DNA from: Crassostrea angulata
Taxonomy: Eukaryota
Assembly: GCF_025612915.1 (NCBI RefSeq)
Contig: NC_069116.1
Span: forward strand, 6,154,123-6,218,122
DNA: 64,000 nt
Reading direction: 5' to 3'
A program made the translations under genes and the position numbers. Within the stretch, counting starts at the first letter, position 1, and the number at the start of each line of letters is the position of its first letter. Of this stretch, positions 8,869 to 62,630 are shown one piece after another. The notes beneath the pieces were generated by a model that was not told the DNA's origin, ran no database searches, and saw only the letters and a list, made by a program, of their open reading frames with translations.

Positions 8869-8874
<6 letters not shown>

Positions 8875-8936: not shown

Positions 8937-8940
<4 letters not shown>

Positions 8941-11125: not shown

Positions 11126-11776
11126 TTTTATAAAGGTTATTAAGTTTGATTAAAGTTATGGGAATAATTAGATTCAAATATCATGGAGAAACAATTAATT
11201 CTTACACTGCATGTATAGAGGCCCATAACTGGTCGGCCCACCTTTACTCATTTTTAGAGATTGAAATACTGCAGATTACCTGAATGTTCTCTTGATCAAT
11301 GTTACCTAGGGTTGTCTAATTCCAATAGTCAGAGTACTGACATCAAATCAATGCACAGAACAGGTAAATGAAACACCTGTACACATAGGTGTAACAAGTG
11401 ATCAGGACTCACTAATACAGCCTGGGGAAAACCCCTCTTATACAGACAAATGATTGAATCTATAGATAAGATCCTGTCCTCAATTTAGCTTGCTAGACAT
11501 TTGAGTAGATAAAATTTAAGGTTAAGCATTATTCATCCCTGTTCAATGAAAAACAATATGAGTAGAATGGCATGAACATAAACTTTCACATTATGTTTAT
11601 ATTTTATAGCTTGCCATGGGTTAAACATTGTTTTGTTTTTTTTGTTTTTTTTAGACTGATGTTTTTTCACCTTGACTTGGCAAATAAATTTTTCAGTTTT
11701 AATGTAGTTAAATCAAGCACATACATAATATATTGTCTAACAATATGAAAATAAACTTTTAAACGAGAAGACTCAC

Positions 11777-14700
11777 CAAGACTAGGTGATGATCTAGCTA
11801 TCTGGGAGATCTTCTTGCTCCTCTTCTTTTTCACCACAAAGCCATCCTCTGTTGAGTCCGAGTCCACTGAATCTCCTCCAGGTGTTCGGGGAAACTCCCT
11901 CACACTCTTCTTTAGTGGAACCTTCTCAGACGCTGCTGACGCCACACTCCCAATATCTGAGCCTTTTGGACTACAGGATCTCCGTTTGAAAGCCTTCCTC
12001 AAACTGCTGGTCTCAGGGTCAACATTCAAATCATGTGACATTTCCTCTTGGTCCTTCTGATTGTACATGTCTTCAACAGTTTCATCCTCATCAAAATCTG
12101 GTTTATATGGATCTGTTTTGGCATCAAGTTGTTTTGTAGGTGCTGAACTGTAGTCAAGATCCATATTTTTCTCAGCAAGGTATTTATCCAAATTAACTAA
12201 TGTTCTGGAGATCATTGGGTCTTCATCTTTATGTAGGTCTACAGAGTGTTGCAAAGTCACATACTTATCTGTGGACTGGAATCCACATCTTCCACATAAC
12301 CAGTTACAAATTTTGTGCAAATGCATCATGTGCAGCTCTACCCCTCTTAGTGTTCGCTTCTCTGAAAAGCAAATTGGACAGGACACATTTCCAGTTTCTT
12401 TCTCTAGGGGTGTAGCAGCTTTAGGAACTTTTGCATCATTCTTTGCATCCAGATTTTTGTTTGCTTCCTCATCTTCAGTGTCAGAACTCTGGTCTTCTTT
12501 TTGTTTAAACATCACTACACCACATTTTTTCAAATCCTCCTTAGACATAGCTGCCACAGATTCAATGTCTGCAAAAGTGCGCAACACATAAGGAGTTTCT
12601 TCCTTGTGAACATTCCTTGAATGCCTCAAAGCATCGGATTTATTGTAGGTCACATGACCACAACGCCCGCACTGTAACTTTTTCAGTTTGTGTCTCATTG
12701 ATAGATGTCGCTGCACACCAATATAATTGGAAGCAAATCCACACAGTGGACAGTTGGCTTTCATACTCAGAGGCCTCCGTTTTAACTTAAAATTCTTCTT
12801 AAAAGTCAGCATTCTTGAGTATTTGGATTTCTTTGTTTCTTTTAATTTCTTCTTCGGTAGAAATTCTATGAGATCATGTCCTCTCTGAAGGTCATATGCC
12901 ACACGCACAGCTTTACATATTTTAAAGCCATGTTCTGATGTGCAATGATCTGTTACTTCCCCTAGGTTTCTGTGGACATATTTGCAGTATGAACATTTAT
13001 ACATAAAAACTTTGTGCATGCGTAACAGATGCATTTGCATCCCTTTATGCGTAAGCTTCATGTCACACTGGATACACCGGACATTTTGCTGTCCTTTGAT
13101 TGGATTGACTTTCGGCCTACTTTCCTCTGAAGATTCCTTTTCCTCGTCACCAGATTCACTGTCCTCATGCTCATCGCTTTCTTTATCCATCTCTTTCTCC
13201 TCTTCACCATTCTTCTCTACATCATCTCTTTTGTCAGTTACCTCCTCCACTTCCATAGTTTTACAGAAGGATCTTTTGATGCATGGAGAGGTGCCTGGGT
13301 GATCTGCATAGCAATGTCTTAGACACTCCTGCTTTGACATAGACATGTACATACACAGGTTACATGTGTATTCACACATGTTGTGGACCCAGAAGGCATG
13401 ACGCTTGATCCCAACGGCAGAGTCTCCAGACTGGCCACAATACGGACATTTGTAGTACAGCGGAGATTCTTTTGCTTCTGGTTTTGATGGGACAGGTGGT
13501 TTAGGTGGCTTCTGAAATTCTTCCTCCTCTAATACTTCTCTTCTCCTTCGTTTATATAGATCTGGACTAGGATCAAATGTAGTCTTGAACTTGCGAACAC
13601 GGGGAAGATCCAGAATGTTACTTTCATCAACAATTTCATAATTCTGACCTTTGTTAACCTTTTTGCGACGTCTTTTAAGCTTTTTCTTATTCTGCAATAT
13701 TTTCTTTGCTTTCTGGAAGTTCTTTTTCAGATAGTTGGATGTTTTCATTGTTCCATTCTGCTTTTTTCTACCTCTTCTTCCTGGTTTCCTGTACTCTGGA
13801 CTCTTACTGCCACTTGTGTCTGGAATGATCTTCATGGAGGGTAGTGGATCTATAACATCACTCATATCATCGGAATCAGTTTTTTCTTCCTGACTTGTAC
13901 CTTTCGCTGGTACTGCTCCCACTAATGAACCACTATTTTGCATTGAGACATGGTCATTACTTTTGGCCACTAGAACTCCTTCACCACTATTTGAGGCCTT
14001 TTCATTCTTGGATACAACTTTTGTTGAATCTTCTACATTATTCAGCTGAGATAAATGTTCAGTTTGCTTCCGTGAATTGCTCTCCATCTCTCCAAGAATG
14101 TCACGAATCTTTTTCTTTCCTGAATAAGTTTTCTTCACAATACCCAACTGCACGTCTGAAGGTGATTCATCAATGCTTTCACCGGAAGTTCTGGATTCCA
14201 ATGCCGAGTTACCTATGTCCGACTTCTTAGATGTGAATCTGAATCTCCTTTGGTCACCGAAGAGTTCCTTTGAAGATTTATCATTTTCTTCATCAGAGAC
14301 CCATCTATAATGTTTACATGCATTCACATTTCTTTCCAATTGTCTTTCAGCTTCAATATCTTTTTTGTAAACAAACTTTTGACCCACACAAGCTTGATGA
14401 TTTTTTAAATGACTTGAAAATCCATATTTGTTGCAGGAAGAAAAGCCACAACTTGTACAAGCATATGGTTTGTAGCTTAAATGAAGCATGTAATGCCTTC
14501 GGAAATTTTGAGCAGATTTTGTAACAAATGTACACTTGTCACATTGGAAATAAAACATCTTCACTTTGTTCACTAGAGAAATGTCAATACTGTCATTATC
14601 AACGTATGTAGAGGCGTCTGCTTTCTGTTGGACAGGTGCAGCATCTGGTTTTGACTGCTGGAGTGGTGGAATGCTTGTCTTAGATGGTTGGTTTGATGTA

Positions 14701-16715
14701 ACGGTAGGTGAACCAGCTTGTCTGACTTGTGCTTGAGTGGCAAGTATGACGTGTGGTGCTATAGTGGACGTTGATACTAGCCTTGGTGCGGCTATTGGGC
14801 TGTTAACTAGCTGTTGCATAGTGATGGTGCCAGTTTGCATCAATGATGACGTAGATATAACTGGAACTAGAGAGATGCTTGAAGTGTGGTTTGGTGAGAC
14901 TTGGTGAGTGACAGCTGTTGAACAAGGTGATGATGGGAATGTTCTCTGCATAGTTTGTATAGTGGTGGGGGTCGGAGTAGATGAGGGAAGAACTGGTATG
15001 TTTGGTGCCACTACTCTTGGTGGTAGACCTCCTGACACCTGTGGATGGATCATCGTTCTGACGTTGGAACTTGGCACAAAAGGAACAATGCCCACTGGTA
15101 ACCCTGTGATCAGATGATGACCACTCGATGGAACCTGACTTCTATGAATAACATTAATAGGGTGGTTTGGAGTAGGGAATCTGTTCTGAGCTACACCAGG
15201 AGGATACGCAGTGGCCACAGCAGGAGATATCAACACTTGAGTGAGAGGGGCACTGGAGCTTGACACAGTAGGCTGAAGGTTGAATTGCTGAAATTGCTGA
15301 ATAGCCACAGTATTGAGGTCAACAGAACCTCTAGGAAACTGTCCCACTGCTGGAATACTAGCAGGATTAACTGCAACACCCAGCGCAGGAATCATCAGAG
15401 GAGGCGGAGGACTACACACAACAGTAGTGGTCTTGGTCAGGTTGAACTGAGAAAAGTCCTTTTCTTCCAGGGAATTGTCAGCTTCTTCTTCTGGTACAGT
15501 GTCGGTGCTTGCTTTCTCTGTCAGCTCCTTTCCACATTCCTTTGGCATGATCTCTGTAAAACATACATTATCTGAACTCTTTCCTTTTTCTTCATTTGAG
15601 TTTTGAACTTTGTTCGGCTTATCAATTTTTTCAGCACGATCATTTTTTACATTATCTTCCTCTTCAACTGCAGTCTTCTTTGCATTTGTACTTTGATTCA
15701 GGATATTTTTTTCTAAACACTCTTGTTCTGACGTGGTTCCTTTTTCTATTTCACTTTCCACTTCACTTGTTGTCTTCTCCTCTGAATCATGTGTTTTTTC
15801 TTTAGCAGTAATTCCCAACATTTCCTCTACAGCTGGTTTTCTGGAGTCTTTTACCATTAAATCACTCGGCTCTGCTCTCTTTCCTTCACCTGCATCACTA
15901 TCTTTTTCTACAACTGGTTCTCCACATTTAACTGAAAACACTGAATTTTCTTCCTCACTTTTATCTTTTGATGTATGAATATTCTCTCCACCCACAGTCC
16001 TTTGTTTAATCACTGTAGTGGTCTTTAATCCCTCACCCTTTTCAACTGTGTTTATATTTTTGCTCACTTCTGTCGCTGCCATGTTATCTGCCTGTTCTTT
16101 TTCACAGTCCACTGCTTTGTTAACTGTTTCCCCTCCCTCATCTTTGAGCACTGTTTCTGGGGCAGCCTCCACTTTACAGTCCTCCCTGACAAGACCAACA
16201 CTTTCTTCTTCCTTCTTCTCACCATCTGTTACCATAGAAACCTGTAGATTTTCACCCTCTTTGACTGCTGTGACACTTTCTCCTTTGTCCTTTGCAAGTT
16301 CTGTAACCATACCAGTCTGTATTTCTTTACTAGTTTGGACTGCATTGGCATTTTTGCCTACCTTTTTTCCTGGCTCACTGGGTCCTTCCCTTTCTGTATC
16401 ACTGGAATCTGACAACCCTTCTTCACTACCGGACTCTGAGTTTTCAGACATTGTGTCTTGGAGCTTGTCTTTGTGCTCTTTTACAGGGCTGTTGGCTCTC
16501 TGAATGAGTTTGGATTTTAAATTTCTTCGAATTGCCTGCGAGAAGTCAATGCTGGGTTCGTCCATTTGTTCAATGATGTCATTGTTTTCATTTCTCACCA
16601 CCACTGCAGGAATATTGAGTTTTGTTTGCTTATCAGACACAGAGTTTGATGTGGAATGAGGATCTGTTCCACCATTCTTCTGATTTTCAGCTTTATTTTC
16701 CCCTGTGGTTTCCAT
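11777..16715 (-). CDS. Large C2H2 zinc-finger protein, coding exon 1 (1646 codons, ATG at 16713-16715). 5'UTR continues to about 16776, where a ttttacag acceptor indicates a 5'UTR intron.
   Basis: Track ORF 11667..16715. About 10 widely spaced, mostly paired C2H2 fingers (FQCDKC..H..H, YACTSCGF..H, YKCPYCGQ..H, YTCNLC..H, VRCIQC..H, YKCSYCKY..H, NCPLCGF..H, LQCGRCGH..H, VSCPICF..H, WLCGRCGF..H). Long acidic/Ser-rich and Pro-rich low-complexity stretches. Donor cttgGTGAGT at 11776, phase 1. The last 35 codons of the track ORF are intron read-through. Confidence 0.85.
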
Positions 16716-36960: not shown

Positions 36961-37329
36961 GCTGAAGAACATTATAAGGCATGGTTAGAACCCCTAGTGT
37001 AGATCCTTTCCATAGATACGTCATTCTGGGGTTTTTCCTTAATTCTATTTTTTTTTTGCAGATAATGAGATATCATAATTCAGTTCCGATGACTTATATC
37101 AATTTAGAGAAGATGGGTGAATAAGGCGTGTAATATGCCCATATGAGGAATGAATAGATACTGCAAAATTAAAATATCATTAAATCTGATACCAAAAAAA
37201 AAAATAATAATAATTAAAAACAATGTATATTAAACGTAACATCGGTTTGTAACCCTTAAGCTTATTTTAAATACTTGCAATAGGTTTATTTAAACTGGGC
37301 TATGCGTGTCAAAACCTCCAAATAGTGTC

Positions 37330-37850
37330 ATTTTTATAACTTCAATCCCTTTTCTTTTATAGAGTGGGTCTGAGCTCCATATTTTTGTCATAGTCTAAAT
37401 GCGGTTTGATGGAATTAAAACCGATTTCAATCAACAAAAATGTGGAGAGATGACCCACTATACTTTAAAAATATCATTTTTATCCCAACAATTGAACGTT
37501 TTAGAAAAATAACACAAGTCCGTAAATTCGTGGCAAACGTCTCATATAGCATTTAACCAACGCAATTTGTTGTGAATGAAATGGCTCAGTGATTAGAGCA
37601 CCAGACACTATGTAACTTTATAGAACTTGGGTTTTTAGGTTGTGGGTTCGATACCACCAAACCTTCAGGATTTATTTTTTTCTTATCGTTTTTTTTAAAT
37701 TTTCAAACTGAATAAAGTTATAAATAACCCTTTTGTAAACTTATATTATAACATATCAAATATATTTAATTGAAAAATGTTAAATTTGAAATTGTATTTT
37801 ACGACTAAACTAAATGGGCAGTTGCGCCATCTTACTCCCCCATCTTCTTT
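37330..37850 (+). mobile_element. tRNA-derived SINE-like repeat, copy 1, with A-box (tggctcagtgattagagc) and B-box (gggttcgatacc).
   Basis: Internal Pol III promoter boxes. About 80% similar to the second copy at 39370-39740. Confidence 0.55.
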
Positions 37851-39740: not shown

Positions 39741-40221
39741 TTGAAAGCTATTCAGTAGGCCTATATGAGTGGGAGCAAGTTGACTGAGGGGTTGAATTGG
39801 CTGGGGACGAGTTGCCTTATACCCATCTGAATCAACATTTTGGTGGTCATAGTTTCGCAATATTTCAGTTAAATGTGCTAAAAGTTCCATTAATAATGTG
39901 CTTTAGATGAAAATTAATTTCGATTTAATGTAAGTATTTAAACACGAGGTTCTTCACAACAATATTTGAGAGGCTGTTCGAAACTATTTTCAACAATTAA
40001 TATTACGTGAAGCGGAGAAATTCCTGATTTCTGTATGTGTTTTTATTTTTATATTTTTGATCGATTTCTAGATGTACAACTCCTCCATAACAAGTATTGC
40101 TTATATATGCTCTCTTTTTTATTACATTACCCCGAGTACATTTGCATGTTAATGCGTTTAGGCCTACAGTATACAACAGTCTTTTGCGCAAGTTACCAAC
40201 TGGGCTTTAATCCGAGGTTCC

Positions 40222-41651: not shown

Positions 41652-42665
41652 ATGAAGAAATTGAACAGGTATCTCATCACACTGGGTGTTCTGACCATTA
41701 TCCTAATGGTGTCTCTCTTTACTTACAATACTAAGATCTTAAAACATTCTCAGAGAGAGGACTTTGTATTCCAGCCTGCAAAGTTTTCAGACCTGCTTAG
41801 AGATGGACGAAATGATACCAATCATGTACTTACTGCTGCTATGAGAATCTCCAAAGGGGGCCAGAAAGCACTGCTGGTAACCTTAGTCAATGATGCCTTT
41901 CTGCCATTCACCTTCAGCTGGCTATGTAACACCCAGGGTATGGGTATTCACAATCAGGTCTTGTTTATAACAGGTGACAGTGAAAGTGCCATGAAAATCA
42001 ACCAGAAATGGCCAGAGGTAACAGCCATACAGATAGATGGAGTCCACTCAGGGAACCAGGAATATAGTCATGTTGGATATGTGGAATTGATGGTGAGGAG
42101 GTCAGAGATCCTTCTGGAGATATTAGAGAAGAACATACCAATTTTCCTGTTTGAAGTGGACTGTATTTGGATCACAAACCCACTTAATAACATTCAAAGC
42201 TACTCAAATGTTGATGTTGTAGTAAATGCCGTGTCAAGCCGAAGCAATGTAATTGCTGGAGGATTTCTTTACCTACACCCCACTGATGCCTCAAAGAAAA
42301 TGTGGAGAGCTTTAACAAAGCAGCTGGTACAACTTGGTATGAAGATTAAAAATTCAGCTGACGAAAAGTTAGTCAGTGAGGGTGACAATGATCAGCAATA
42401 CCTATCAAAACTTGTGTTTTCTAAGTATGGAGGACTGAGGTACAAAATCTTATCAACTGAAGACTATGCAGATGGAAAATGGTATTCATTCTCTAAAGAA
42501 GAAAGAAATAGATGGAAAATACCCTTAATTTTAAACAACAATTGGATAAGCGGAAATCTGGCAAAGATCAAGCGAGCAAAGGCATGGGGCCATTGGTTCC
42601 TGACAGAGAGTGGACACTGTGACCCCAAGAACATTGAAAGGATTGTAGATCAGCACCTTTTGTGA
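41652..42665 (+). CDS. Type II membrane glycosyltransferase, nucleotide-diphospho-sugar transferase (Nucleotid_trans, GT77-like) family. 337 aa, single coding exon. The exon begins at about 41633 after acceptor tttgtag.
   Basis: Track ORF 41643..42665 (ATG at 41652). N-terminal signal anchor MKKLNRY-LITLGVLTIILMVSLF. LVTLVNDAFLPFTFSWLCN and FEVDCIWITNP (DxD-like) resemble the PF03407 signature. AATAAA at 42689-42694, 24 nt after the stop. Confidence 0.75.
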   Translation: MKKLNRYLITLGVLTIILMVSLFTYNTKILKHSQREDFVFQPAKFSDLLRDGRNDTNHVLTAAMRISKGGQKALLVTLVNDAFLPFTFSWLCNTQGMGIHNQVLFITGDSESAMKINQKWPEVTAIQIDGVHSGNQEYSHVGYVELMVRRSEILLEILEKNIPIFLFEVDCIWITNPLNNIQSYSNVDVVVNAVSSRSNVIAGGFLYLHPTDASKKMWRALTKQLVQLGMKIKNSADEKLVSEGDNDQQYLSKLVFSKYGGLRYKILSTEDYADGKWYSFSKEERNRWKIPLILNNNWISGNLAKIKRAKAWGHWFLTESGHCDPKNIERIVDQHLL

Positions 42666-42744
42666 GGTTCTCTTAGAGTCAACATGACAATAAAGTGTTG
42701 TTTTTAGTTTTCAACATCAATTATACAGCTAAATACATGTATAA

Positions 42745-42913
42745 CAAGAGGCACATGGGCCACATCACTCACCTGAACAGTTCCTTGTACCATTCTATTT
42801 TGTAGCATATGCTATTTTACGCTCACCTGAGCTGAAAGCTCAAGTGAGCTATTCTGATCACATTTTGTCTGTCGTCCGTCTGTCTGTAAACTTTTCACAT
42901 TTTCAACATCTTC

Positions 42914-42962
<49 letters not shown>

Positions 42963-44420
42963 AGCCTAAGGGGATTTAAAGTTGTGAAAATTAAGGACCA
43001 CGCCCTTTTGCAAAGGGAGATAATTAGGAATTTATGAAAATTTTTGAGAAATTTTCAAAAATCTTCTTCTCATGAACCATAAGACCAGGAAAGCTGAAAC
43101 TTGTGTGGAAGCATCCTCATGTAGTGTAAATACAAAATTGTGAAAATCATGACCCCGGGGGTAGGTTGGGGCCACAATAGGGGGTCGAAGTTTAACATAT
43201 GAATATATAGAGTAAATCTTTAAATATCTTCTCAGAAACTAATCGGCCAAGAAAGCTGACACTTGTGTAGAAGCATCCTCAGGTAGTGTAGATTCAAAGT
43301 TGTGCAAATCATGACCCCCGGGGGTAGGTTGGGGCCACAATAGGGGGTCGAAGTTTAAAATATGATTATATAGAGTAAATATTTAAAAATCTTCTTCTCA
43401 GAAACTAATCAGCCAGGAAAGCTGAAACTTGTGTGAATGCATCCTCAGATAGTGTAGATTCAAAGTTGTGAAAATCATGATCCCTGGGGGTAGGGTAGGG
43501 CCACAATGGGGGGTCGAAATTTTACATAGGAATATATAGAGTAAATCTTTAAAAATCTTCTTCTCAGTAGCTAATCAGCCTGGGAAGCTGAAATTTGTGT
43601 TGAAGCATCCTCATGTAGTGTAAATACAAAATTGTGAAAATAATGACCCCCGGGGTAGGGTAGGGCCACAATGGGGGGTCAAGTTTTACATAGGAATATA
43701 CAGAGTAAATCTTTAAAAATCTTCTTCTCAGAAACTAATCAGGCAGGGAAGCTGAAACTTGTGTGGAAGCATCCTCAGTTAGTGTAGATTCAAAGTTGTG
43801 AAAATCATGACCCCCGGGTGTAGGGTGGGGCCACAATGGGGGATCGAAGTTTTACATAGGAATATTTAGAGTAAATCTTTAAAAATCTTCTCATGAACCA
43901 TAAGACCAGGAAAACTGAAACTTGTGTGGAAGCATCCTCAGTTAGTGTAGATTCAAAGTTGTGAAAATCATGACACCTGGGGGTAGGGTGGGGCCACAAT
44001 GGGGGGTCGAAGTTTAACATATGAATATAAAGAGTAAATCTTTAAAAATCTTCTTCTCAGAAACTAATCGGCCAGAAAAGCTGACATTTGTGTGGAAGCA
44101 TCCTCAGGTAGTGTAGATTCATAGTTGTGAAAATCATGACCCCCGGGGGTAGAGTAGGGCCACAATGGGGGGTCAAAGTTTAACATATGAATATAAAGAG
44201 TAAATCTTTAAAAATCTTCTTCTCAGTAACTAATCAGCCAGGAAAGCTGAAACTTGAGTGAAATCATCCTCAGGTAGTGTAGATACAAAGTATGTATTAT
44301 GTATTATTATACCCCCGCAAACGAAGTTTAGGGGGGTATATTGGTTTCACCCTGTCCGTCTGTCCGTCTGTCTGTCTGTCCGTCTGTCTGTAGACGCAAC
44401 TTTGTCCCCCCTATAGAATT
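42745..44420 (-). mobile_element. Composite non-autonomous element A. It has a terminus caagaggcacatgggccacatcactcacctga, an arm gctcacctgagc...tgatcacattttgtctgtcgtccgtctg of about 200 bp, then about 7 tandem 180-bp units (43020-44290) and a (gtcc/gtct)n tail.
   Basis: Arms homologous to elements at 45700-47700 and 54795-56400. The internal satellite unit is shared with 54795-56400 (inverted orientation). Confidence 0.7.
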
Positions 44421-45699
44421 TTTTATTACTGCATGGAACAGTTTGAAAATTTGTACATATGTTGAACACCATCTGAAGATGTGCACCTGCAATTTTTTTT
44501 AAGATCAGACAAGATTTAATGATTTTATGACAGTTTTCATTTTCCTTATTCTATATATTGTACACTAATGTTGAAAAGTAAGGGAGGTAATCCTTACAGA
44601 TTTTATTAATTAATTAATAGAAAACACTCTAAAATATAATTATATAAATACATCCAGATGGAGTTTTTTGTCTTTATGTCTTAATTAATAAAAAAAAAAT
44701 TATTTTTTATAAGTATTCTATCAACTGACAATGCAAAGTTTTTGTTTGTCAATGATAAATTCTTAGGAGCTAATGAGAACATCAAAGACAAGTGTGGCTG
44801 AATTCATTTGTCCCAAGGGAGCCATTATCTGAGCCATGGTTCAGATGGAGCATGTGTTTAGGGGAAATTGATAATCTGTAAAATGGGTGATGGTTTTGGG
44901 GCTATTTTAAAACTGTTTCATAAATAATATAATTATTAATAAAGAAGTTAAACTATTTTTAGAGGTTGTTTAAATTTATTTGTCAAGTAATTTGATGAAG
45001 TGACCCTATTGGGCATTAATTTAAATGAAATTCAAAATTACTGATATGATTGAAGTGTTTTGGCAATTTTAAAATTGTTTGTAATATTAAATTTTTTTTT
45101 ACATATTTTTACATAGTATGGTAATTATGGTAATGTTTTGGGAGTTTATTAAATTTAACAAGCCCATCAAAGAAAATCATAGTCCTATGGGATCAATTTT
45201 CTGATTTGGAGTTCAATTGTGCCATAGGAGAAAGTGAGGAAAATTTGAAACAACTAATTGCATCTCTCAAGACTCTTATTAGAAAGATATTGAAAGTTTT
45301 ATCAACAGAAGAGCATTGCTTGGCTACCGGTATTTCTATTCACTGCAAAGGGAGGGGTTATTGTCATTTTGTTGGTTTTTCTTTAAATCAATTAAATTAA
45401 AAAAATATATCATCAAATACATACATTTGTAAATGTATTACTGTTATAGATATGTATTTACAGTGAAATTCTGACAATTTTGATTTTAATTTTTCTTTGT
45501 TAATTTTTTTTTTTTTTTTTTACATTTCTATAATTTTTTTTTTGTATGTGTTCCAAACCTTAATTATTATTCAATTCAATTATTTGTCCCATTTGAAATT
45601 AGCCTAGCGGGGGTATTAGTCCCATTAGGACAGTTCTAGTTGTCCATTGTCCAGATAGTTTGCATTATGACTCCATTAAGCTGATTTTATCATACCTAT

Positions 45700-45701
45700 T
45701 G

Positions 45702-45740
<39 letters not shown>

Positions 45741-47700
45741 TTTTAAACTTTGAACCCTTTCTGGGGCCCCAGTATTGGTCCTAGGTTTATGGTTGACTTT
45801 AACAATTTAGAATTTACACTATTTGAGGATCCTTGCACAGTAATCTCACAAACTGTAGCATTATAGTTCTTGGGAAAAACTGGTTAAAAACATTTTCCAT
45901 ATATATTTCTATGTTAAAATTTGAACTCCTTTTGGGGCCCCAGTATTAGTCCAGTGGTCACAGCTTTATTAATTTAGAATCTACATTATCCAAGGTTGTA
46001 TGCATAATAATCTCACGAATTGTAGCGTTGTATTGTCGAGAAAAGATTTTTAAAAATGTTACCTATATATTTCTAAATTAAACTTTGACCCCTCTTGGGA
46101 CCCCAGTATTAGTCTGGGGATCACGATTAAACCAATTAAGGGGCCCCAGTTTGGGTCCGAGAGTCACAATTTTTACAATTTAGAGTCTTCACTATATATA
46201 CAAGCTTTTGTTTAAATATTGGCATTTCTGGTGCAGTGGTTCTTAAGAAGAAGATTTTAAAACATTTTTCCTATGAACTTCAGTGTTAAACTTTGAACCA
46301 CACCTGGGGCCCCCGTTTTGGTCTGAGGGTGACGATTTTTTTACAATTTAGAATCTTCCCTATACATATCAATGGCTGGAACGGCCACAAAGGTGTCGAG
46401 CTTACATTTTCTTTGATATAAATTTTTACAATTTAACATCACCATGTGATTGTATACTCAGTATATTTCCTACATAGTGATGCATTTGTAATACAATGAA
46501 TCATAACACATCATGGTTACAAAAATTGAAGTCAAAGTTCAAAAATAAATTATCTTCTTTCTGCTTTAAACAGTCTTTGAAAAAAATTTCACGGTTCATC
46601 ATTTGTATACAAGGGTAACACATTAATAGTGTTTCCCTAATTATAATAAAATATACATGTAAATTTTCAATTAAGAATCTACATAAGCCAGGTATGCATG
46701 CATAGTAATTCAGCAAACTGTAACACTGTAGTTCTCAAGAAGAACATTTTAAAAAATTTATATTTTTTTAAAATCTGAAATTTTGAACCCCTCTTGGTGC
46801 CCCAGTATTAATATAGTCCGGGAGTCACGATTTTTACCAATTAGAATCTACATTATTTAGGGATGTAATATCCCAAACTGTTGCATTAAAGTTATTGAGA
46901 AGACTTTCCTATATATGCTAAATTTCAATTCCCGTGTGAAACATGATTACACTTTGGTATGGCTGTTTACAAATAAAACGTGCGTTGATCTGCCGTATCT
47001 ATAATGCTCAACCTACCAACTAGCTGCAATATTGCAACAAAATCACAAGATACATTTATCGCTTACATTCATTTTGGAGACCGTGCCTGACAACAAATAA
47101 ATTTACATATTTATTTTTATCGGGCTACTGTCTCGATAAACTTTAATAATATTTAGTGAATTTTTAAAACCTTATCGTATTCATCCGTCATTTCATGATT
47201 AAACAAACTTATATACTTTAGCAATGAGTTGTCAATAATCAGGGAGACACAGTTGGGTTTCTTGGTGCACAATTTAGTTGAATAAATGGAACAAAAATCT
47301 TGTAAACAATTTTCTATGTATTTCTATGTTAAACTTTGAACCTCGTCTGGGGCCCCAGTTTTGGTCCGAGGGTGGCAATTTTTACATTTTAGAATCTTCA
47401 CTTTATACACAAGCTTTTTTGTAAATATTGGCATTTCTGGTGCAGTGGTTCTTGAGAAGAAGATTTTTAAAGTCACAAACCCTATACTCACTGTTTTGCA
47501 ATTATCTCCCTTTTAAAAAGGGCTGTGCCCTTTATTTTAACAATTTATAATCCCCTTTTCATAAGGATGCTTTGTACCAATTTTGGTTAGATTTGGCCCT
47601 GTGGTTTTAGAGAAGTCGAAAATGTGAAAAGTTTATAGACGGACGACGGATGATCAGAAAAGCCCACTTGAACCTTTGGTTCAGGTGACTTAAAAAGTCT
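45700..47700 (+). mobile_element. Composite non-autonomous element C. Left terminus ctcaggtgagcgatgtggcccatgggcctcttgtt. About 10 tandem units of 150-190 bp (core ttgaacccctcttggggccccagtattagtc...agaatctacactat). Right arm ...gacggacgacggatgatcagaaaagcccacttgaacctttggttcaggtga.
   Basis: Same terminal sequences and right arm as elements A and B, but a different internal satellite family. Confidence 0.7.
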
Positions 47701-49198
47701 GTAAAATATTTTTTTTCTTCTGTATGCTGTACAATGTAAAAAATTATCATCTGATATTAAAACTTATTTACATTATGAGACTGTTCACGAGTGTTTAATC
47801 AAGTACGAGTGTTTTAGTAAACAGTTTGATCTACTCAGAAGATGGAAACAAGCAAAGTTCAATATTTTCTGTTACCACGTCTTTAAAAGGGATAGTGTTT
47901 AGAGTATACTTGTAAACATTTACCCCAAATTTTAATATTTGTTTACATTGTCCCTATAGTAAATAACAGATTTTTCCAAAGATTCCACTTCAGGTATACC
48001 TCACTACATCAGTACTTATACTTTTCAAGCCACTACATCACAAGATGACGGTTTAAATGTTTTGTTAAATTGTATCAATTCATTTGGTTGAATATTTTCC
48101 TATCTCAGTGGTTATAGTATCAGGCTTGTGAACTGTCTTGGCTATTGATCATATTTACTAAATAAAATTTGATGCAGCATCCCTACAGATGGGAACCAAA
48201 AAACCAAGAAGGGAGTGATGAGTTTGCAGTGATTTATTTTGTACAAATAACAATAACAATGACATGTTACGTACAATTTGTGTCAAGCGAGGGGAGAGAT
48301 GTTAGTTGAATGCTAATGAACACTAACATCTTGCAAACATCGTTTTAACAAGTTGAACAATAGGGAGGGTAACCCTTCTCTCACCCAGGAGTAATCTCCT
48401 ATTCTGATGTTTCACAACAAAAGTTTTAACAGAAAAGTAAGGTCAACATGATAAAGCTATTAATAAGCAAACAAGTTTTGGTGGGAGGTAATACTAGTAA
48501 GGTAGAGAGGGATGATAACAAATATCTTGTGTGCCACAAATTCATTTACAGCTAGCATACCAAGAAAAGTTGAGGCATTGTTTCACAAAGGAGTTCCAGT
48601 AAAACTTAACAACTTTACAGATGAAACACTTGGTGTCTCTTTTCAAAATTCATTGCAAAATTTCTTGACTACTTTTTTACGTACACAATTCACAGACATT
48701 GTACACATTACAACATTTTATAAAAGAGAAGTTTTTACAAATTGTTTTTCTTATATTTGAATAAAAAGTGTTAATTCATAAAACAGATGAGGAAAATAAA
48801 ATTTAAAAAATACAGGAATAAAACTTCCGAACAAGTTTTCTCTGTTACAAATACCATTAACCCTCTTGATATGGCACTATCATGATGTGATTATCTTGGA
48901 CCTTCCTTTAAAATATTGACTGCCCGGAGGCAAACATGATGTACAGGCCTGTCAGATCTGAATATCAGATTTGTTTGAAACCATTACATAAATTTCTATT
49001 TCTACCATTGATTGATCTTTGATCAGGTGCTGATAAGAAATAAATAAAATAAGTTATTAGTATACATTTTGTCACACATGCACTTCTTGCATTCTATGTA
49101 TTCTTATGGTATTCCTGTGTTTCATAAGGCTCGCTGGTCGGTGATTCAGGCCTGGCTAGGAACTACAGTACAAGGTTCTTCAACTGCTTCTGTTTCCG

Positions 49199-49300
49199 TT
49201 ATTTTTTCTTTCTTTCCTCTGTACACCGTGGGCAAAACCATTTTCCTTTGGGTTTCATTGTCAAGCCCACACAAGCAAAATGGAACCATTCAATGGGGCA
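49199..49300 (-). CDS. ING5: ING4/5-like terminal exon, second half of the PHD finger, [33 protein letters not shown] plus stop (49199-49201).
   Basis: Found by searching the minus strand for EWFHF. Acceptor tttttttttag, phase 0, matches the previous exon. Near-identical to ING5 [26 protein letters not shown]. Placed by hand. Confidence 0.85.
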
Positions 49301-49559
49301 CTAAAAAAAAATTAATTCAATGCAATCAACAGGAACCTTGCCCTAAGTATTCAACATTCTACACAAAAGTTGCATTTAAAAAGTACAGTCAAGCACGATT
49401 AGTAGGTATAATATAGCAGTAACATAACCAATAAAATGTATTTCGAAACATAGGTAATCACAGATTACAAAGCTCACCGAGATGAGGCATCACCTTCACG
49501 AGGCATCACCTGTACGAGACCACTTTAATCATTTCATATGAAAATCACACTTAATGATC

Positions 49560-50300
49560 TTAGATATTCATGGATACTTTTTTGACACAATATCGTATAT
49601 CATCTGTTAAAAAATTGTATGATAATCATATGTTCATTTCATATGGTATTACAAGATACAATGTTTATCATTACAATTATATAAAATACAATATTGCATC
49701 CTATCGTACTTACAATATACATCATATAATACAATAAAATACTGTAATAAACAATAATATGATCTATATGATACTGTACCAAATTATGACATTGTATTGT
49801 GTTATAAATGATAGTATTTTATCACATAAAACAATATATCACATAATACATCATAATATTGTAACTTGATACATAACATTATATTGTATCATATGATTCA
49901 ATATAAATTGATTCAATATTGAATGATACAATATTATGTGGTGTAGTAAAATACTATATAATACAATATTATATTATACATTGTATCATATGACATAATA
50001 ATATATATTACAATATCATATAATACAATTTCATGTGATGTAATCATATATAATATCATATGTAACAGTATCGTGTGATCATATAATAAATAGATAATAT
50101 GATATAACACAATATTGTATAATATACAATACTTTACATAACAATATCATGATACAATATCATATCATAAAATATCAAAAAAATTGATACAATATCACAT
50201 CGTATAATATAACTTTTTACAGTATAACGTGATATTATATTGTATCATTTAAAACAATAGTGTATCATATTATACAATACTTTATCATAGGAATCATGTT
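49560..50300. repeat. About 700 bp AT-rich cryptic low-complexity region built from permutations of atacaatat / atattgtat / atcatat words.
   Basis: Seen in sequence. No exact tandem period. Confidence 0.8.
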
Positions 50301-50339
50301 ACATCATTTAACAACAAACACATCAATCTACCAAGCAGG

Positions 50340-50890
50340 TTTGAGTGAGGTAGGAGATTTATTTAGCATCCTTGATAATGGAGATCAGGCTCTGCATCTG
50401 AAGATACCTCTGTGTTTCATTTATAATATAGTTAAATCAACTATGCAAGCTATTATCTATAAAACATGTGACCTGTTCCAAAAAACTAAACCTCATCCAG
50501 CATCTGAAATCTATGGCTCAGATTCAGCATTCAAGCCTGTCAGGTGCATCAGTATCATATAAAAGATGCATCATCCATGCAAGTTTGGTGAAGTTAGGAC
50601 CAGTTATAACTAAGATATCATCAGAGGGTACCTTATCAAAAACTTTAACCAGCTATTAAAACCTTAACCTCCTCCAGCATCCAAAACCTATAGCTCAGAT
50701 TCAGCATCCATCCCTGCCAGGTGCATCAGTACAATAAGACACACCATCCATTCAAGTTTGGTGAAGTTAGGACCAGTAATAACTAAGATATATTTTTTAA
50801 CATCCCTGATAATGGAGATCAAGCTCTGCATCTGAAGTTACCTCTGCGATTCATTCATATTATAGTTTAATCAACTATGCAATTTTGAAA
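50340..50890. repeat. Satellite cluster 1: about 2.3 units of a roughly 187-bp satellite (50440-50790), flanked by 95-bp direct repeats (50340-50440 and 50795-50890).
   Basis: Units alignable to cluster 2 at 52490-53170. Lies in ING intron 6. Confidence 0.75.
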
Positions 50891-51699
50891 TAGTACTTTT
50901 ATCTATTAGGCCAAAAAAAAATTAATCATTAGTTTCTCGGGCCAAAATTTTGAAATTTAGATGAGCAGGCAGGCAGGTTTTTTTTTTTTTTTTTTTTTGC
51001 AAAATTTACAATGACGTTAAGCCATATTTTATGAATTATTTGGCAAAGTTTAAATATTTGTTTTAATTTGTTCTTTTTAGCTGTTTCTGTTTCCTTTTCA
51101 AAGGTTGAGATTTTGCAATTGAACAAACATGACAAATGGTTTGTGCCCCTGTTTCATTTTGCGGCCCATCTTTCCCCTCCACAGTAACACAATAAGTCTG
51201 AACTGAAATTGGGGAATTTCTATGACATTTCACTAGTTGAATTTGCCATATAAAAATTTATCAAATAAAGCATTCATTTGGGGGTGTTTTCTTATCAATC
51301 TCCAGTGCCTTGAGGACAGAAATCAAGAAAAAGTAAATTAGTCATCATAAAATTCTCAAACAATACAATTGTCCTTTATTCCTGCTACTAGGCAATAAAG
51401 AGGCTTCGATTTCTTAAGATAACAGAGAAATTTCAGTGGTAGTGTTAACAGGGACCAACCTAGAGCAAACTTAGTTTAGGAAGACTTCATTTCTGAAATT
51501 CTCCCTCACAGAAAAATAGGGAGAAATTTGAGAAATCAGGTAGACTTCCATTCTTTGAAAATGGCATAATGCTAATGATAATACATGTATAGAATATACA
51601 GATACAACCTTAATTTGAATTGGATTAAAAGCAAGTCAATTGAAAATAAAACAACTCCTAAAAATTCAAAATCTTATCCATTTTTTAAAATTTAATTTA

Positions 51700-52215
51700 T
51701 TTGGTGTATTCATACATTTTGTAGATGAAATGTTTCATAATTGTGTTGGCTAAATGACAAATGAAACCAGTCTATGTGTATCAGTGTATTTTGGAGGTAT
51801 TGGTCCAACCCTTTGACCCAATTACAACCGTCATATAGTTGGATCTGTTTTATTTTAAAGATAACTGTAGACAAACGGTTTTAAGATTATTTTGGCATGA
51901 ACTTGGCAGAGTTATTAACTAATTACAAGTTACCAACTAATTGTAATATCAGCACCTAAAGTTATAAACATCGGTTGTAATTTACAGTACACAGTATGAG
52001 AATGCATCAACCGCATTTATAACCTCTAAAAATAAGACAGTCGCTAGTTATTAATCACAACAGGATTTAACTTAGGCTATGAAAATGTCTTTTGAATTAA
52101 ATGATTATCATTTTATTGCGTTTGGGGTTAACTCACGATCGTAAACTCAGAATACAAGGCAACTTCAACCTCTCTTTCTGAGGAAATTCTGGCGCAGTTA
52201 CCGACCACAAAGTGA
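51700..52215. repeat. Dispersed repeat, copy 2 (see 23790-24130), with an internal insertion.
   Basis: Alignable blocks. Confidence 0.7.
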
Positions 52216-52489
52216 GTACTTATATTTACATAAACTTGTAATTAGCCCAAGTAACCCCCTAGGTTGGTCACTGGGTAGATGTGTCAGATAAAATAGCATT
52301 TTTACTGACAGAGACAAGACTTTATTCTGTATATATTCTGAGCGTTTGTTTACATTGATTTTATAATAGAGAAAAACGATATTGACGAGATATGAAAAAA
52401 TCCAGAAAAATAACGATAAAAAAGTTTGATGCGGCGATGATTTTACTGATGTGACGGTGCCTGAGAAACAAATCATTAATTTTTTTTGG

Positions 52490-53170
52490 CCTTAAACATG
52501 TAACCTGTTTCAAAAAACTTAACCTTATTCAACATCCAAAACCTATGGATCAGATTCAGATTCAAGCCTGTATGGTGCATCAGTATCATAAGACATACCA
52601 TCCATGCAAGTTTGATGAAGTTAGGGCCTGGCCCTGGGGCCATAAAACTTATACAAGCTTACTTTTGATCTAAGTCTTACTTTTACAAAAGGAACATATA
52701 GTGAAAAAGTGAGACTTAGATCAAAAGTGAGCTGGTTTAAGTTTTATGGCCCCGGGGCCAGTAGTAACTAAGATATAATCATCAGAGGGCACCTCCTCCA
52801 AATCTTTAACCAGCTCTAAAAACCTTAACCTCCTCCAGCATCTGAAACCTATGGCTCAAATTCAGCATTCAAGCCTGTCTGGAGCATCAGTATCATAAGA
52901 CGCACCATCCATGCAAGTTTGGTGAAGTTAAGACCAGTAGTAACTAAGATATAATCATCAGAGGGCACCTGCAACAAAAACTTTAACCAGCTCTAAAAAC
53001 CTTAACCTCCTCCAGCATCTGAAATTTAGGACCCATATTCAGCATCCAAGTCTTTCAAGTCCATAAGTAGGTCCAGGTGCATCATCCATGCAAGTTTAGT
53101 GAAGATAGGACAAGTAATAACTTAGATACAGGACCTTCAACAAAAACTTTAACCAGGTCCGGAAGCCGAC
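52490..53170. repeat. Satellite cluster 2: about 3.5 units of a roughly 187-bp satellite (...aaccttaacctcctccagcatctgaaacctatggctcaaattcagcattcaagcctgtctgg...ccatccatgcaagtttggtgaagttaagacc...).
   Basis: Tandem units seen. One unit is interrupted by a MITE with 45-bp inverted termini at 52622-52760 (ggccctggggccataaaacttatacaagcttac...gtaagctggtttaagttttatggccccggggcc). Confidence 0.8.
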
Positions 53171-53411
53171 GCCGGGGGTATAGCATAAGCTCTCCTTGAC
53201 TTTGTCTCGGTGAGCTAAAAATTCATAATAACCTACATACAGTTGAATATTGATGAGCTATATTGTAAATAGGATTAAGGAAAGCCTGTATAAAGCGGTC
53301 ACCTAAAGAAACCAATACATATGTATTTTTTAACCTACACACTGTAAAAACAGTTAGACCTTCATGAGCTAGATTGTAATAAAAAAAATTAAGGTAAAGG
53401 TGTTCACTTAC

Positions 53412-53568
53412 ATCAGGGTTATCACAGCCAATCATTTCTCCATAGGATACTTGGTGACAGAGACAGTAAGTTGGTTCATTGGGATCCACCGGCATGTCCA
53501 GGACATCAGAAGCATGAGTGATGGACAGAGAGGACAGAATTGGTATAGAGGCCACTTCTTCTGGGGCA
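53412..53568 (-). CDS. ING5: ING4/5-like exon 6, (S)[52 protein letters not shown], first half of the PHD finger.
   Basis: Track ORF 53223..53555 frame. [26 protein letters not shown] is identical to vertebrate ING4/5. Acceptor ctattccag, donor GAT|GTAAGT. Confidence 0.9.
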
Positions 53569-54215
53569 CTGGAATAGTAAAGCCAAATTCAATTACTTAA
53601 GCAGTGTCATAGTTCCCTAAAATAACTAAAAACCACAGTCCAAGTTGTTAGATTCAACAATACGTTTTTATTTTCCTTGATTTTGAATCAAGTCCAGTTG
53701 CTCAAAAGTATTGATGTTAAAAAAAATTCAGAGGTAAGGATGTAAATAAAATGGTATCCATGTGTAAACTATGTCGGTCATTACTAAAATATTCAACTAC
53801 TTTATCCATGATAAAAACAAATATTGCAAGCACAGAGGTTTATTGTTGAGATGACAAGAGCAGCAATAATGTGCCTTTTGTATCTACAATGATGTCATTT
53901 TTTGATCGAGGTCTAATCATAGTCATATGTAATGTGTTCAAGTTATTAATACATGTAGAAGATTACAATTAAACAAGTAAAGTTCAAGTTAATGAAGTTT
54001 AAACCTAAAATTAATGTAAAGCTCCTAGCTGAAAATTACGGAACCGAGTCAACCCTTAAATTTTTGGACCAGTATCAAAGCCATACAATTGAAGTTCAGC
54101 ACTGATAACTGACTATAACTTTTAAAAAAGTGCATTTTCAATCCAATGTATTTAGTTATTTACAAGTGCTTTCAAAAATTTGACCATTTCTGAAAATCTA
54201 TTTGTTGTTACAAAC

Positions 54216-54300
54216 CTCTGTTGTCCTTTTTTCTTTTTTTTCTTTGGAACTTCATCATCAAATTCATCCTTTTTCCTTTTCTTTTTATCTTTATCTCTGT
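54216..54300 (-). CDS. ING5: ING4/5-like exon 5, Lys-rich NLS region (N)RDKDKKKRKKDEFDDEVPKKKKKKGQQ.
   Basis: Acceptor atcttcag, donor AG|GTTTGT. Phases (1 in, 2 out) link exons 4 and 6 in frame. Confidence 0.75.
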
Positions 54301-54434
54301 CTGAAGATCGAAAGAAATGCTCAAATAAATATTAACAGTTTCATATTTCTTCTTTTTTAAAATCATAATTTTTAATCCACAAGATGTAAACCAATTCTCT
54401 TCATGCAGAAATCTGTCTTGAGAGTTCCACTCAC

Positions 54435-54546
54435 TCTTTTTGCCCGAGTCTGAATCTGATTTTAGCTTTGCCGCTGAACTCTTGTCTTTAAGATCTGCCT
54501 CAAATCTCGCCAGATCTGCATCTAACTTTCGTATATGCTTGTCAAC
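54435..54546 (-). CDS. ING5: ING4/5-like exon 4, [37 protein letters not shown].
   Basis: Track ORF 54208..54564 frame. Matches ING [22 protein letters not shown]. Acceptor ttttacatacag, donor A|GTGAGT. Confidence 0.9.
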
Positions 54547-54794
54547 CTGTATGTAAAACAACAATATTCTTACAAAGTAGAACAGAAATCAGCACAAGTA
54601 ATTTTGTATCATGCTGATACACATTCAAATAAATTTAAACTTTATACAAGTGTAAAATCACTATTCACTTGTGCATAGAAAGCATACAACCATGAACATT
54701 TCATTGATTTTAAAAATATCACAGCAATCCAAAACAAATTTTTTTCAAAAATTTTAAAAAGATTTTTTATTTGAAAATGTGAGGTATAGATAGC

Positions 54795-56346
54795 AAACAA
54801 GAGGCCAAGGGGCCACATCGCTCACCTGAGCAACAATTGCCTTAATTCTGATCAAATTAGCATTACAGTACATGTATCAAAATATCTTGACAACTAAGTA
54901 CAGTAGATCTTGCAAAAAAAAAAATTGAAAATCTGCCAATTTTTATCCACCTCTTTCTTTTGGTAAATACCAAGCCCCTTTTGTTGTTGTACCTGTAAGA
55001 TGACTTTTCTCTTTTCCTATATACCCCCCCCCCCATTTTGTTGCCCCACTTTTCTCTAGGGTATCATGGTTTCATCAAACTTATATCTGCATAACCTGTG
55101 CTTTCACACTAAGTACTGAGTTTTGGACCGAAAAACTTTCCCAGAATATTTTTAAAGATTTTCTCTATATATGTAAAAATTCAAACCGCCATCACAGCCC
55201 CGCCCTACCACTAGGGACTGTGATTTTGAAATTACACTACCCGAGGATGCCTCTACACAAGTTAAAGCTTTTCTGGCCAAATGGTCTTTAAAAAGAAGAT
55301 TTTTAAAGATTTTCTCTATATATTCCTATGTAAAAATTCATCCCCCTATTGTGGCCCCACCCTACCCCCGGGGACCATGATTTTAACGAACTTGAATCTA
55401 CACTATCTGAGGATGCTTCCACTCAAATTTGAGCTTTCCTGGCCTAATAGTTTTTGAGAAGAAGATTTTTAAATATTTTCTCTATATATTCCTATGTAAA
55501 ACTTGACCCCCCAATTGTGGCCCCACCCTACCCCTGGGGACCATGATTTGAACGAACTTGAATCTACACTACCTGTGGATGCTCCCATTTTAATTTGAGC
55601 TTTTGTGGCCCAATAGTTTTTGAGAAGAAGATTTTTTAAGATTTTCTCTATATATTCCTATGTAAAACTTGACCCCCAAATTGTGGCCCCACCCTACCCC
55701 TGGGGACCATGATTTGAACGAACTTGAATCTCCACTTCCTGAGGATGCTTCCACTCAAAGTTGAGCTTTTCTGGCCTAATAATTTTTGAGAAGAAGATTT
55801 GTTAAAAATTTTCTCTATATATTCCTATGTAAAACTTGATCCCCCAATTGTGGCCCCACCCTACCCCCCGGACCCATGATTTGAAAAAACTTGAATCTAC
55901 ACTACCTGTGGATGCTTCCATTTTAATTTGAGCTTTTGTGGCCCAATACTTTTTGAGAAGAAGATTTTTAAAGATTTTCTCTATATATTCCTATGTAAAA
56001 CTTGATCCCCTTCTTGTGGCCCCTCCCTACCCCCGGGGACCATGATTTGAACAAACTTGAATCTACACTACCTGAGGATGCCTCCACACAAGTTTTAGCT
56101 TTTCAGGCCAAATAGTTTTTGAGAAGAAGATTTTTGAAAAATACCAACAAATTTTCAATAATTCTCAATTATCTCCCCTTTAAAGAGGGCGTGGCCCTTC
56201 ATTTGAACAAACTTAAATCCCCTTCACCTAGTGGTGCTTTGTGCCAAATTTGGTTGAAATCTGCCCAGTGGTTTTTGAGAAGAAGATGAAAATGTGAAAG
56301 TTAACGACGACAACGACGACGACAACGACTACGACAGACAACGGAC

Positions 56347-56378
<32 letters not shown>

Positions 56379-56400
56379 TGGCTCAGGTGAGCTAAAAATG
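54795..56400 (+). mobile_element. Composite non-autonomous element B, inside ING intron 3. Terminus caagaggccaaggggccacatcgctcacctgagc. About 6 tandem 180-bp units (55130-56130, reverse complement of the element-A units). Right arm of about 250 bp ending ...gatcagaaaagctcacttgagcctttggctcaggtgagc.
   Basis: Homologous to elements A and C in termini and arm. A C11 tract lies at the left border. Confidence 0.7.
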
Positions 56401-62204: not shown

Positions 62205-62630
62205 GACAAAATATCAGCAACCACCATAAGATTTCATACATCAGACAACATATCATCAACCTTCATAAGATTACATACATTGACAATATATCAGCATCCA
62301 CCATAAGATTATATACATCAGACAATATATCAGCAACCACCATAAGATTACATACATTGACAATATATCAGCAACCACCATAAGATTACATACATCAGAC
62401 AATATATCAGCAACCACCATAAGATTACATACATTGACAATATATCAGCATCCACCATAAGATTATATACATCAGACAATATATCAGCAACCACCATAAG
62501 ATTACATACATTGACAATATATCAGCAACCACCATAAGATTACATACATCAGACAATATATCAGCAACCACCATAAGATTACATACATTGACAATATATC
62601 AGCAACCACCATAAGATTACATACATCAGT
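62205..62630. repeat. Minisatellite of about 11 copies of a 38-bp unit (atcagcaaccaccataagattacatacattgacaatat), with alternating variants giving a 76-bp higher-order repeat. It starts 4 bp after the exon f donor.
   Basis: Seen directly. Confidence 0.9.

Follow-up and report, generated by a model that had tools for sequence, protein, structure and literature searches.

Four probable non-autonomous Helentron insertions, three of them nested, beside and within an ING4/5-like gene of the oyster Crassostrea angulata

The stretch of DNA analysed here (the window) comprises 64,000 nucleotides of contig NC_069116.1 of Crassostrea angulata (RefSeq assembly GCF_025612915.1, positions 6,154,123 to 6,218,122 of the forward strand), and this report concerns the repeat-rich region at 42745-56400. 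At its left edge lies an open reading frame (ORF, 41652-42665) for a nucleotide-diphospho-sugar transferase, and a cluster of three elements, designated A', B' and D, starts 78 bp past the stop codon of this ORF. Further to the right, an ING4/5-like gene was located on the minus strand, with exons at approximately 57.8k, 57.3k, 56.83-57.0k, 54.48-54.55k, and 53.4-53.5k; the orthologous ING locus in assembly GCA_963853765.1 (Magallana gigas) is annotated PF12998:ING. A fourth element, C, has ING exons on either side of it on the minus strand, confirming a statement of an earlier, sequence-only reading of the window that one copy lies in an ING intron. That reading described the region as three composite elements standing side by side with different satellite arrays. 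Our analysis indicates that the region very probably holds four insertions of non-autonomous Helentrons (HINEs, DINE-1-like), three of which belong to the Cg_HINE group-1 lineage with Cg170-type repeats of 166 bp.

A 33-nt motif was detected three times in the window with no more than three mismatches (42745-42777, minus strand; 45705-45737, plus strand; 54798-54830, minus strand), where none was expected by chance. Likewise, BLAST identified an "arm" of approximately 230-280 bp at 42814-43049 (minus), 47448-47696 (plus), and 56138-56399 (plus), with 69-79% identity. The shared terminus and the arm of approximately 250 bp, both proposed by the sequence-only reading, are thus real. BLAST of the arm across the window returned no copy beyond these three, and the exact 40-nt end of the arm was found once in the window. 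The arm is the left flank of an asymmetric element read in reverse, containing a 5' subterminal inverted repeat (subTIR), an inverted repeat (IR), and a GTCY microsatellite, and the 33-nt terminus is the right flank, containing a 3' subTIR and a palindrome; arms on both sides of an array, as had been supposed, are therefore not the arrangement. In the alignment of the copies, the left flank read on the canonical strand TTTTTA, the 5' subTIR GCTCACCTGAGC (1-2 nt after TTTTTA), a 5-nt spacer, the IR GCTCAAGTGAGC, TTTTCTGATCA, a GTCY-type microsatellite, and approximately 165 bp common to the three copies. The right flank read CTCAGGTGAGC, which is the reverse complement of the 5' subTIR, then GATGT, the palindrome GGCCCATGGGCC, TCTTG, and a T-run. 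In A' and C, 22-24 nt separate the 3' subTIR CTCAGGTGAGC from the 3' end; in B', both subTIRs are decayed. The DNA hairpin predicted for the 5' subTIR and the IR was strong in A' (-10.8 kcal/mol, z -4.3) and C (-12.3 kcal/mol, z -4.6) and degraded in B' (z -1.3). A GTCY microsatellite occupies 42867-42887 in A' and, as the reverse complement, 56304-56348 in C, with a short remnant in B'. The palindrome is perfect in A' and in the copy of B' at the orthologous locus of GCA_963853765.1 (L121), and carries one or two changes in C and in the B' of the window. When the literature was searched for the strings of the subTIR, IR, and palindrome, unrelated primer sequences were all that matched.

This is the module order described for HINEs, among them the 11 Cg_HINEs of Crassostrea gigas, namely a left flank with a 5' subTIR, a complementary IR, and a GTCY-type microsatellite, an array in fixed orientation, and a right flank with a 3' subTIR and a palindrome (PMC4067079, PMC7492417). 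Every structural hallmark of HINEs that was put to the test here was present, which supports the Helentron/HINE-like assignment made by the sequence-only reading. A Helitron-type 3' end with a hairpin and CTRR was looked for and was absent; the ends, TTTTTA-GCTCACC... and ...GGCCTCTTG-T(n), are those of Helentrons and lack the hairpin that canonical Helitrons carry approximately 11 nt from the 3' end.

Public metagenome contigs were scanned for the exact subTIR-N5-IR pattern, which yielded at least 120 left-flank loci, nearly all of them in two ENA assemblies; all counts of public copies in this report are for loci listed among these. Of the 66 copies with enough upstream sequence, 83-92% have T at the 5' boundary positions -6 through -2, and 95% have A at position -1. 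Past the right-flank core, successive bases were T in 100, 84, 69, and 53% of 13 copies. Three or more tandem GTCY units were present in 30 of 67 copies. Among the loci with 1 kb or more beyond the left flank, 13-14 had a co-oriented right flank downstream, and one (L110) had it inverted. The arrays of the public copies had a period of 144-166 bp, began inside the arm, were of the arm type, and comprised approximately 1 to 4.3 monomers; none of them carried the monomers of A' or C. For nine complete copies, the mean longest word shared by the two flanks was 3.33, compared with 3.42 in a null of mismatched pairs. A scan of viral contigs for the right-flank motif gave 0 matches. At L110, approximately 690 bp separate the left flank from the inverted right-flank motif downstream, beyond which lies a 159-bp array; the locus probably represents another nested or back-to-back pair like A' and B'.

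The orthologous locus L121 was located through the transferase ORF, whose protein cluster includes Magallana gigas XP_011432757.3, and was colinear with positions 31776-56762 of the window at approximately 96-98% identity. Element C was absent from L121, where the empty site reads gatagcAAAAAAtgtcac, compared with gatagcAAA[54798-56393]AAAAAtgtcac in the window. This empty site is exact, within six consecutive T on the element strand; the occupied site has two additional T. Element D (44308-45639) was also absent, with an empty site of gtattaT^Tgtacattgtcc against gtattat[...]tgtccattgtcc in the window, so the target of D is TT and the insertion fell between the two T. D and C are therefore polymorphic between two M. 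gigas assemblies. No target-site duplication was found at either empty site or in the nine complete public copies.

These sites bear on two other explanations. The first is that the elements are MITEs, or miniature inverted-repeat transposable elements, with tandem repeats, that is, cut-and-paste derivatives with terminal inverted repeats (TIRs) and target-site duplications, as Pearl-like elements were first described. The inverted repeat of 11-12 nt between the two ends (GCTCACCTGAGC and CTCAGGTGAGC) and the small, non-coding nature of the elements are in keeping with it. However, the 3' repeat is subterminal, at its 22-24 nt from the end, the two ends are asymmetric, and target sites are duplicated neither in the public copies nor at the two exact empty sites, so that no TIR-plus-duplication features were seen; moreover, a target of an oligo-T run or TT is a signature of Helentrons, and HINEs insert there without target-site duplication (PMC4067079). 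We regard a MITE origin as highly improbable. The second explanation is that the repeats are ordinary dispersed blocks of the Cg170 satellite or local segmental duplications, which are not mobile and had their flanks copied along. The monomers do belong to the Cg170/HindIII satellite family, and two of the copies are less than 5 kb apart. In contrast, whole units from left to right flank were exactly present or absent at two sites between the assemblies, at least 120 unlinked copies share the same sharp ends within unrelated flanks, and the identity of 66-80% between copies is far below that expected of a recent local duplication. Immobile satellite blocks are, in our view, scarcely credible, and the elements are treated below as HINEs.

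The order of the flanks on the plus strand is a right flank (minus) at 42745, a left flank (plus) at 42821, a right flank (plus) at 45705, and a left flank (minus) at 47689. By this order, A' (42815-45739) is a plus-strand element that lies within B', an element of the minus strand that runs from 47696 to 45740 and then from 42814 to 42743. A' and C are alike in their arrays and their arms. The right flank at 45705 resembled that of C (92.9% identity over 42 bp, plus approximately 65 bp of upstream similarity), and the flank at 42777 did not. Homology to the B' type of monomer ends at 45742/45743, and the 3' boundary of A' is at 45739/45740. In L121, A' was compact and consisted of the left flank, 1.55 monomers, 16 bp, and the right-flank module that corresponds to 45640-45739 of the window. 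This continuity of array and right flank in L121 assigns the flank at 45705 to A' rather than to B'. From the orientation of the flanks, the similarity of the modules, and the compact A' of L121, we infer that A' is nested in B'. Thus, three of the four insertions are nested (B'[A'[D]]), side-by-side composite elements are not the layout, and the boundaries 42745-44420 and 45700-47700 given by the sequence-only reading cut across a nested insertion.

The A' array comprised 1.55 monomers in L121 versus 7.5 in the window. In both assemblies it begins with one and the same monomer and ends in an identically truncated one; by this comparison, the array changed by six monomers in place after insertion. 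As to the order of events, B' would have inserted first and then decayed, A' would have entered B' just upstream of the B' right flank, D would subsequently have landed within A', with the array on one side and the right flank on the other, and C would have inserted separately into the intron of the ING gene. This relative dating, with B' oldest, A' and then D younger, and C separate, draws on the nesting, on the decay of the hairpins and monomers of B', and on the fact that D and C are polymorphic.

Three side-by-side composite elements (42745-44420, 45700-47700, and 54795-56400) with swapped arrays would account for the occurrence of motif and arm three times each and for the difference in monomers among the three copies. 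In that case, however, the orientation of the terminus relative to arm and array would differ in each "element", whereas elsewhere it is fixed in 13-14 public loci against one, and for the Cg_HINEs it is described as fixed "without exception" (PMC7492417). The continuity of the A' array with the terminus at 45705 in L121 is likewise at odds with such composites.

The arrays speak to the same question. Both A' and C contain arrays of one satellite, 80-81% identical by BLAST and opposite in orientation. Arrays of 166 bp were reported by Tandem Repeats Finder (TRF) in A' and C only and not within 45700-47700; the tandem arrays claimed by the sequence-only reading are thereby borne out for these two elements. 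B' (45740-47472) contains interrupted monomers only, which were 66-70% identical to those of A' and C and oriented as in C. The sequence-only reading had paired the arrays of A and B as one 180-bp satellite and had assigned to C approximately 10 units of an unrelated satellite of 150-190 bp. Instead, C (5.5 copies by TRF) and A' have one satellite, whose monomer measures 166 bp. The case for higher-order repeats in the arrays was unconvincing, as TRF periods of 329-493 bp scored barely above the 166-bp period. Arm identity was approximately 78-85% between A' and C and approximately 69-80% between B' and these two, and array identity fell together with it, from approximately 80% to approximately 66-70%. 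Since arm and array diverge in parallel, there is no sign of array exchange between constant arms, the process that the sequence-only reading had proposed; whole-element co-divergence has also been reported for Cg_HINE group 1 (PMC7492417). With a satellite common to A' and C rather than to A' and B', and with arm divergence that parallels array divergence, we consider composite elements with swapped cargo very unlikely, and favor nested HINEs.

The A' array was 86-90% identical to two published C. gigas CL1 arrays and approximately 90% identical to C24654. In the part of the CL1 sheet of the PMC7492417 supplement that was examined, diagnostic k-mers of the A type occurred 347 and 377 times, and C-specific k-mers occurred 0 times. 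CL1 denotes the repeats (167 bp, Cg170 subfamily) of Cg_HINE_1, whose flanks match Repbase Helitron-N2_CGi; the published flank consensus of Cg_HINE_1 is positions 1-105 and 2251-2310 of Helitron-N2_CGi (PMC7492417). The C array was 80-84% identical to CL1 arrays, so it represents a subfamily other than CL1; B', with local similarity only (66-83%), is more distant still. The criteria of PMC4067079 place A' and C in one family, as their subTIRs are identical; over the last 60 bp, their identity of 75.8% is under the subfamily threshold of 80%.

The conserved part of the arm, approximately 165 bp in length, resembled the adjacent monomer in A' (67% over 85 bp, z 9.2) and in C (67% over 98 bp, z 10.5), and, judged by this similarity, it is a degenerate satellite monomer. 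A captured gene fragment, considered because the translation of arm and monomer looked protein-like, was rejected; only seven anonymous short ENA ORFs matched, with no domain. Taken together, an arm that preserves an old monomer and, at the single orthologous locus compared, a difference of exactly six internal monomers with both array ends retained raise the possibility, which we put forward tentatively and with some doubt, that Cg170-type arrays in these HINEs are generated and resized from sequence intrinsic to the element and are neither captured from a satellite that already existed nor exchanged among elements. If true, this would favor one side of a question that was left open in PMC7492417.

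The modules of each element are located as follows. Element A' is a HINE with a CL1 (Cg170-type) array on the plus strand, inserted just upstream of the B' right-flank module and interrupted by D. Its 5' end (42815-42887) contains TTTTAC, the subTIR (42821-42832), the spacer, the IR (42838-42849), TATTCTGATCA, and the microsatellite. The left-flank arm, a degenerate monomer, spans 42888-43048, and the array (43049-44291) consists by TRF of the 7.5 monomers of 166 bp, assigned to cluster CL1 of Cg_HINE_1. The right-flank module (45640-45739) contains the 3' subTIR (45705-45715), the perfect palindrome (45721-45732), and TCTTG followed by TT. Element D, on the plus strand, is a HINE-like element of another family, 1.33 kb long and without a tandem array, located in A' between its array and its right flank. 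At its 5' end it has (T)ATACCCCCGC, the IR GGGGGGTATA, and (GTCY)n, and a complementary 3' subTIR, GCGGGGGTAT, lies at 45607-45616, approximately 25-30 nt from the 3' end; relatives of the D left flank occur at three public loci (L042, L085, and L090).

The 5' part of B' (45740-47696, minus strand) begins with a T-run (47692-47696), followed by a decayed subTIR (47678-47689), the IR (47662-47673), and the arm (47473-47639). Decayed monomers occupy approximately 45794-46340, 46738-46865, and 47300-47472, and between them lie two non-repeat blocks of approximately 400 bp. These blocks (46340-46737 and 46866-47299) are not monomer-like and matched none of the public loci; candidate explanations are filler DNA, earlier insertions, and "anonymous DNA" such as occurs between two arrays in some copies of Cg_HINE_10_13. 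The 3' part of B', split off by A', lies at 42743-42814 (minus strand) and contains the 3' subTIR ttcaggtgagt, the palindrome ggcccatgtgcc, which is in its perfect form in L121, and CTCTTG followed by TT.

Element C (54795-56398) lies on the minus strand, as does the ING4/5-like gene whose intron 3 contains it; this HINE is complete, and its left and right flanks are co-oriented. Its 5' end (56364-56398) consists of a T-run and A (56393-56398), the subTIR GCTCACCTGAGC (56381-56392), a 5-nt spacer, and the IR GCTCAAGTGAGC (56364-56375). The microsatellite is of the GTCY/GTCG type in canonical orientation and reads ACGACGACAACG... on the plus strand; its extent is based on TRF (56304-56336) and on the alignment. 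The left-flank arm (56139-56303), again a degenerate monomer, is kept in A', in B', and in up to approximately 114 public loci. Approximately six Cg170-type monomers of 166 bp, not of cluster CL1, form the array at 55143-56138, of which TRF reported 55226-56135 with 88% matches. The right-flank module (54795-54900) contains the 3' subTIR CTCAGGTGAGC (54820-54830), a decayed palindrome ggccccttggcc (54804-54815), CTCTTG, and a T-run.

Other repeats were observed, located within the ING gene region or downstream of it. An element with a 177-bp monomer lies at 52494-53217 on the minus strand (2.1 copies by TRF at 52758-53128, with further copies on either side). Its 5' end (53217-53200) reads TTTTTAGCTCACCGAGAC and is followed by a partial inverted repeat; it is HINE-like and similar to the subTIR studied here. 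An array fragment at 50461-50792 is related to this element with 82-85% identity. Within the 177-bp array, a near-perfect palindromic, MITE-like insert of 134 bp (TGGCCCTGGGGCCATAAAAC...GTTTTATGGCCCCGGGGCC) was found at 52629-52761; it is not present in L121 (20410/20414), and the GGCC on each side of it may be a target-site duplication.

The locus shows sharp ends, insertion into oligo-T or TT without duplication, two polymorphic copies, insertion of elements into one another, and a change of array length in place. Each element reads, from 5' to 3', a T-run and A, the 12-nt subterminal repeat GCTCACCTGAGC pairing with the nearby inverted repeat, the GTCY microsatellite, the degenerate monomer (the arm), the tandem array, the reverse-complement subterminal repeat CTCAGGTGAGC, the 12-bp palindrome GGCCCATGGGCC, CTCTTG, and a T-run. 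By analogy with the Helentron literature, such elements would be mobilized in trans by the Rep, helicase, and endonuclease activities of an autonomous Helentron that recognizes the terminal hairpins, and integration would be of the rolling-circle type, into oligo-T or TT without target duplication. The changes in array length would arise through unequal exchange or replication slippage.

Several points weigh against the interpretation as nested group-1 HINEs. The autonomous partner is not in the window, as ten ORFs compared with Pfam contained no Helitron or PIF1 domains, and no autonomous partner has been linked to the Cg_HINEs either (PMC7492417). A' and B' are both present in the second assembly, so there is no empty site for A' in B', and alignments of B' monomers across the excised A' site stop at the junction. 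The 3' palindrome is weak as a hairpin (4-bp stem) and is mutated in B' and C. Only A' is tied to a named Cg_HINE, and this putative link runs through its array alone. Finally, the contigs with the public copies are assumed to be host-derived bivalve DNA.

A 1682-aa ORF on the minus strand (11667-16715) was considered as an autonomous Helentron and rejected; it has no Pfam match at E 0.01 and a zinc-finger-rich appearance. This ORF is uninterrupted, with acidic, Ser, and Pro low-complexity stretches and several C2H2-like zinc-finger motifs, and is presumably a single-exon host gene. Unrelated tandem arrays in the window have units of 77 bp (5.5 copies, 95% identity, 62205-62629) and of 20/40/60 bp (13 copies, 1447-1710). 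L121 contains, at 8349-9962, a 1.6-kb insertion that is not in the window (39868-39878) and has perfect TIRs of approximately 50 bp (aatcgcaacttctcgggcctttccggcaagctcggaaaaacacctcgaatg and its reverse complement); gttaaatgtgc is apparently duplicated at its ends, and it looks like a polymorphic TIR DNA transposon. Further differences from L121 are 745 bp present only in the window (37104-37848) and approximately 945 bp present only in L121 (7188-8134).

The closest known system is Cg_HINE group 1 (Cg_HINE_1, Cg_HINE_2, and Cg_HINE_10_13, corresponding to Repbase Helitron-N2_CGi, N2d, and N2C; Vojvoda Zeljko et al. 2020, PMC7492417). The elements described here share with it the module order, Cg170-type repeats of 166-167 bp in fixed orientation, insertion into oligo-T or TT without duplication, short arrays of approximately five monomers, intronic copies, a host that is M. 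gigas or very closely related to it, and, for A', an array approximately 90% identical to CL1. In contrast to the published group, in which the segment between microsatellite and array is "highly variable" (PMC7492417), this segment is conserved in the three elements and in many public copies; in addition, the C array falls outside CL1, and the similarity of the B' monomers to the others is only 66-70%. In the DINE-1/HINE elements from Drosophila, mite, and mosquito (PMC4067079; Thomas, Vadnagara and Pritham 2014), the boundaries are likewise marked by T strings and the target is TT; the subTIRs measure 11-13 bp, an IR follows the 5' one after a few nt, a microsatellite of the GTCY type and central tandem repeats are present, and the 3' palindrome is short. 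Their sequence is unrelated, however, the 3' subTIR lies approximately 22-24 nt from the end here compared with 38-60 nt in the mite families, and the central repeats here come from a bivalve satellite family. Pearl (CvA/CvE, C. virginica), MgE (Mytilus), and DTC84 (Donax) are repeat-carrying, "MITE-like" elements of the same architecture with Cg170-related core repeats of approximately 160 bp (PMC7492417); they belong to other species, and their likeness to the present elements is by published description. With canonical Helitrons, the common ground is the broad superfamily, with its rolling-circle mode, lack of target-site duplication, and 3' hairpin. The present elements differ from them in that their inverted repeats are subterminal, their ends are T-runs, and their target is T^T; 5'-TC and 3'-CTRR ends and an A^T target are absent.

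The elements at this locus are of an already described kind, and nothing in them is new in kind. The phenomena observed have all been reported before for oysters, and the presence of HINEs in introns, their abundance, and their share in structural variants have likewise been published (PMC7492417, PMC7992393, bioRxiv 10.64898/2026.02.10.705023). The asymmetric termini mean that nested copies are easily mistaken for composite elements with swapped cargo. The locus is a good textbook example of known Cg_HINE elements, with three levels of nesting, two polymorphic insertions (one of them sense-oriented in an ING4/5-like intron), and one array of 1.55 versus 7.5 monomers. Beyond annotation, the finding carries little weight; it serves as a clear illustration of the way in which Cg170-type repeats are scattered across oyster euchromatin by elements derived from Helentrons.

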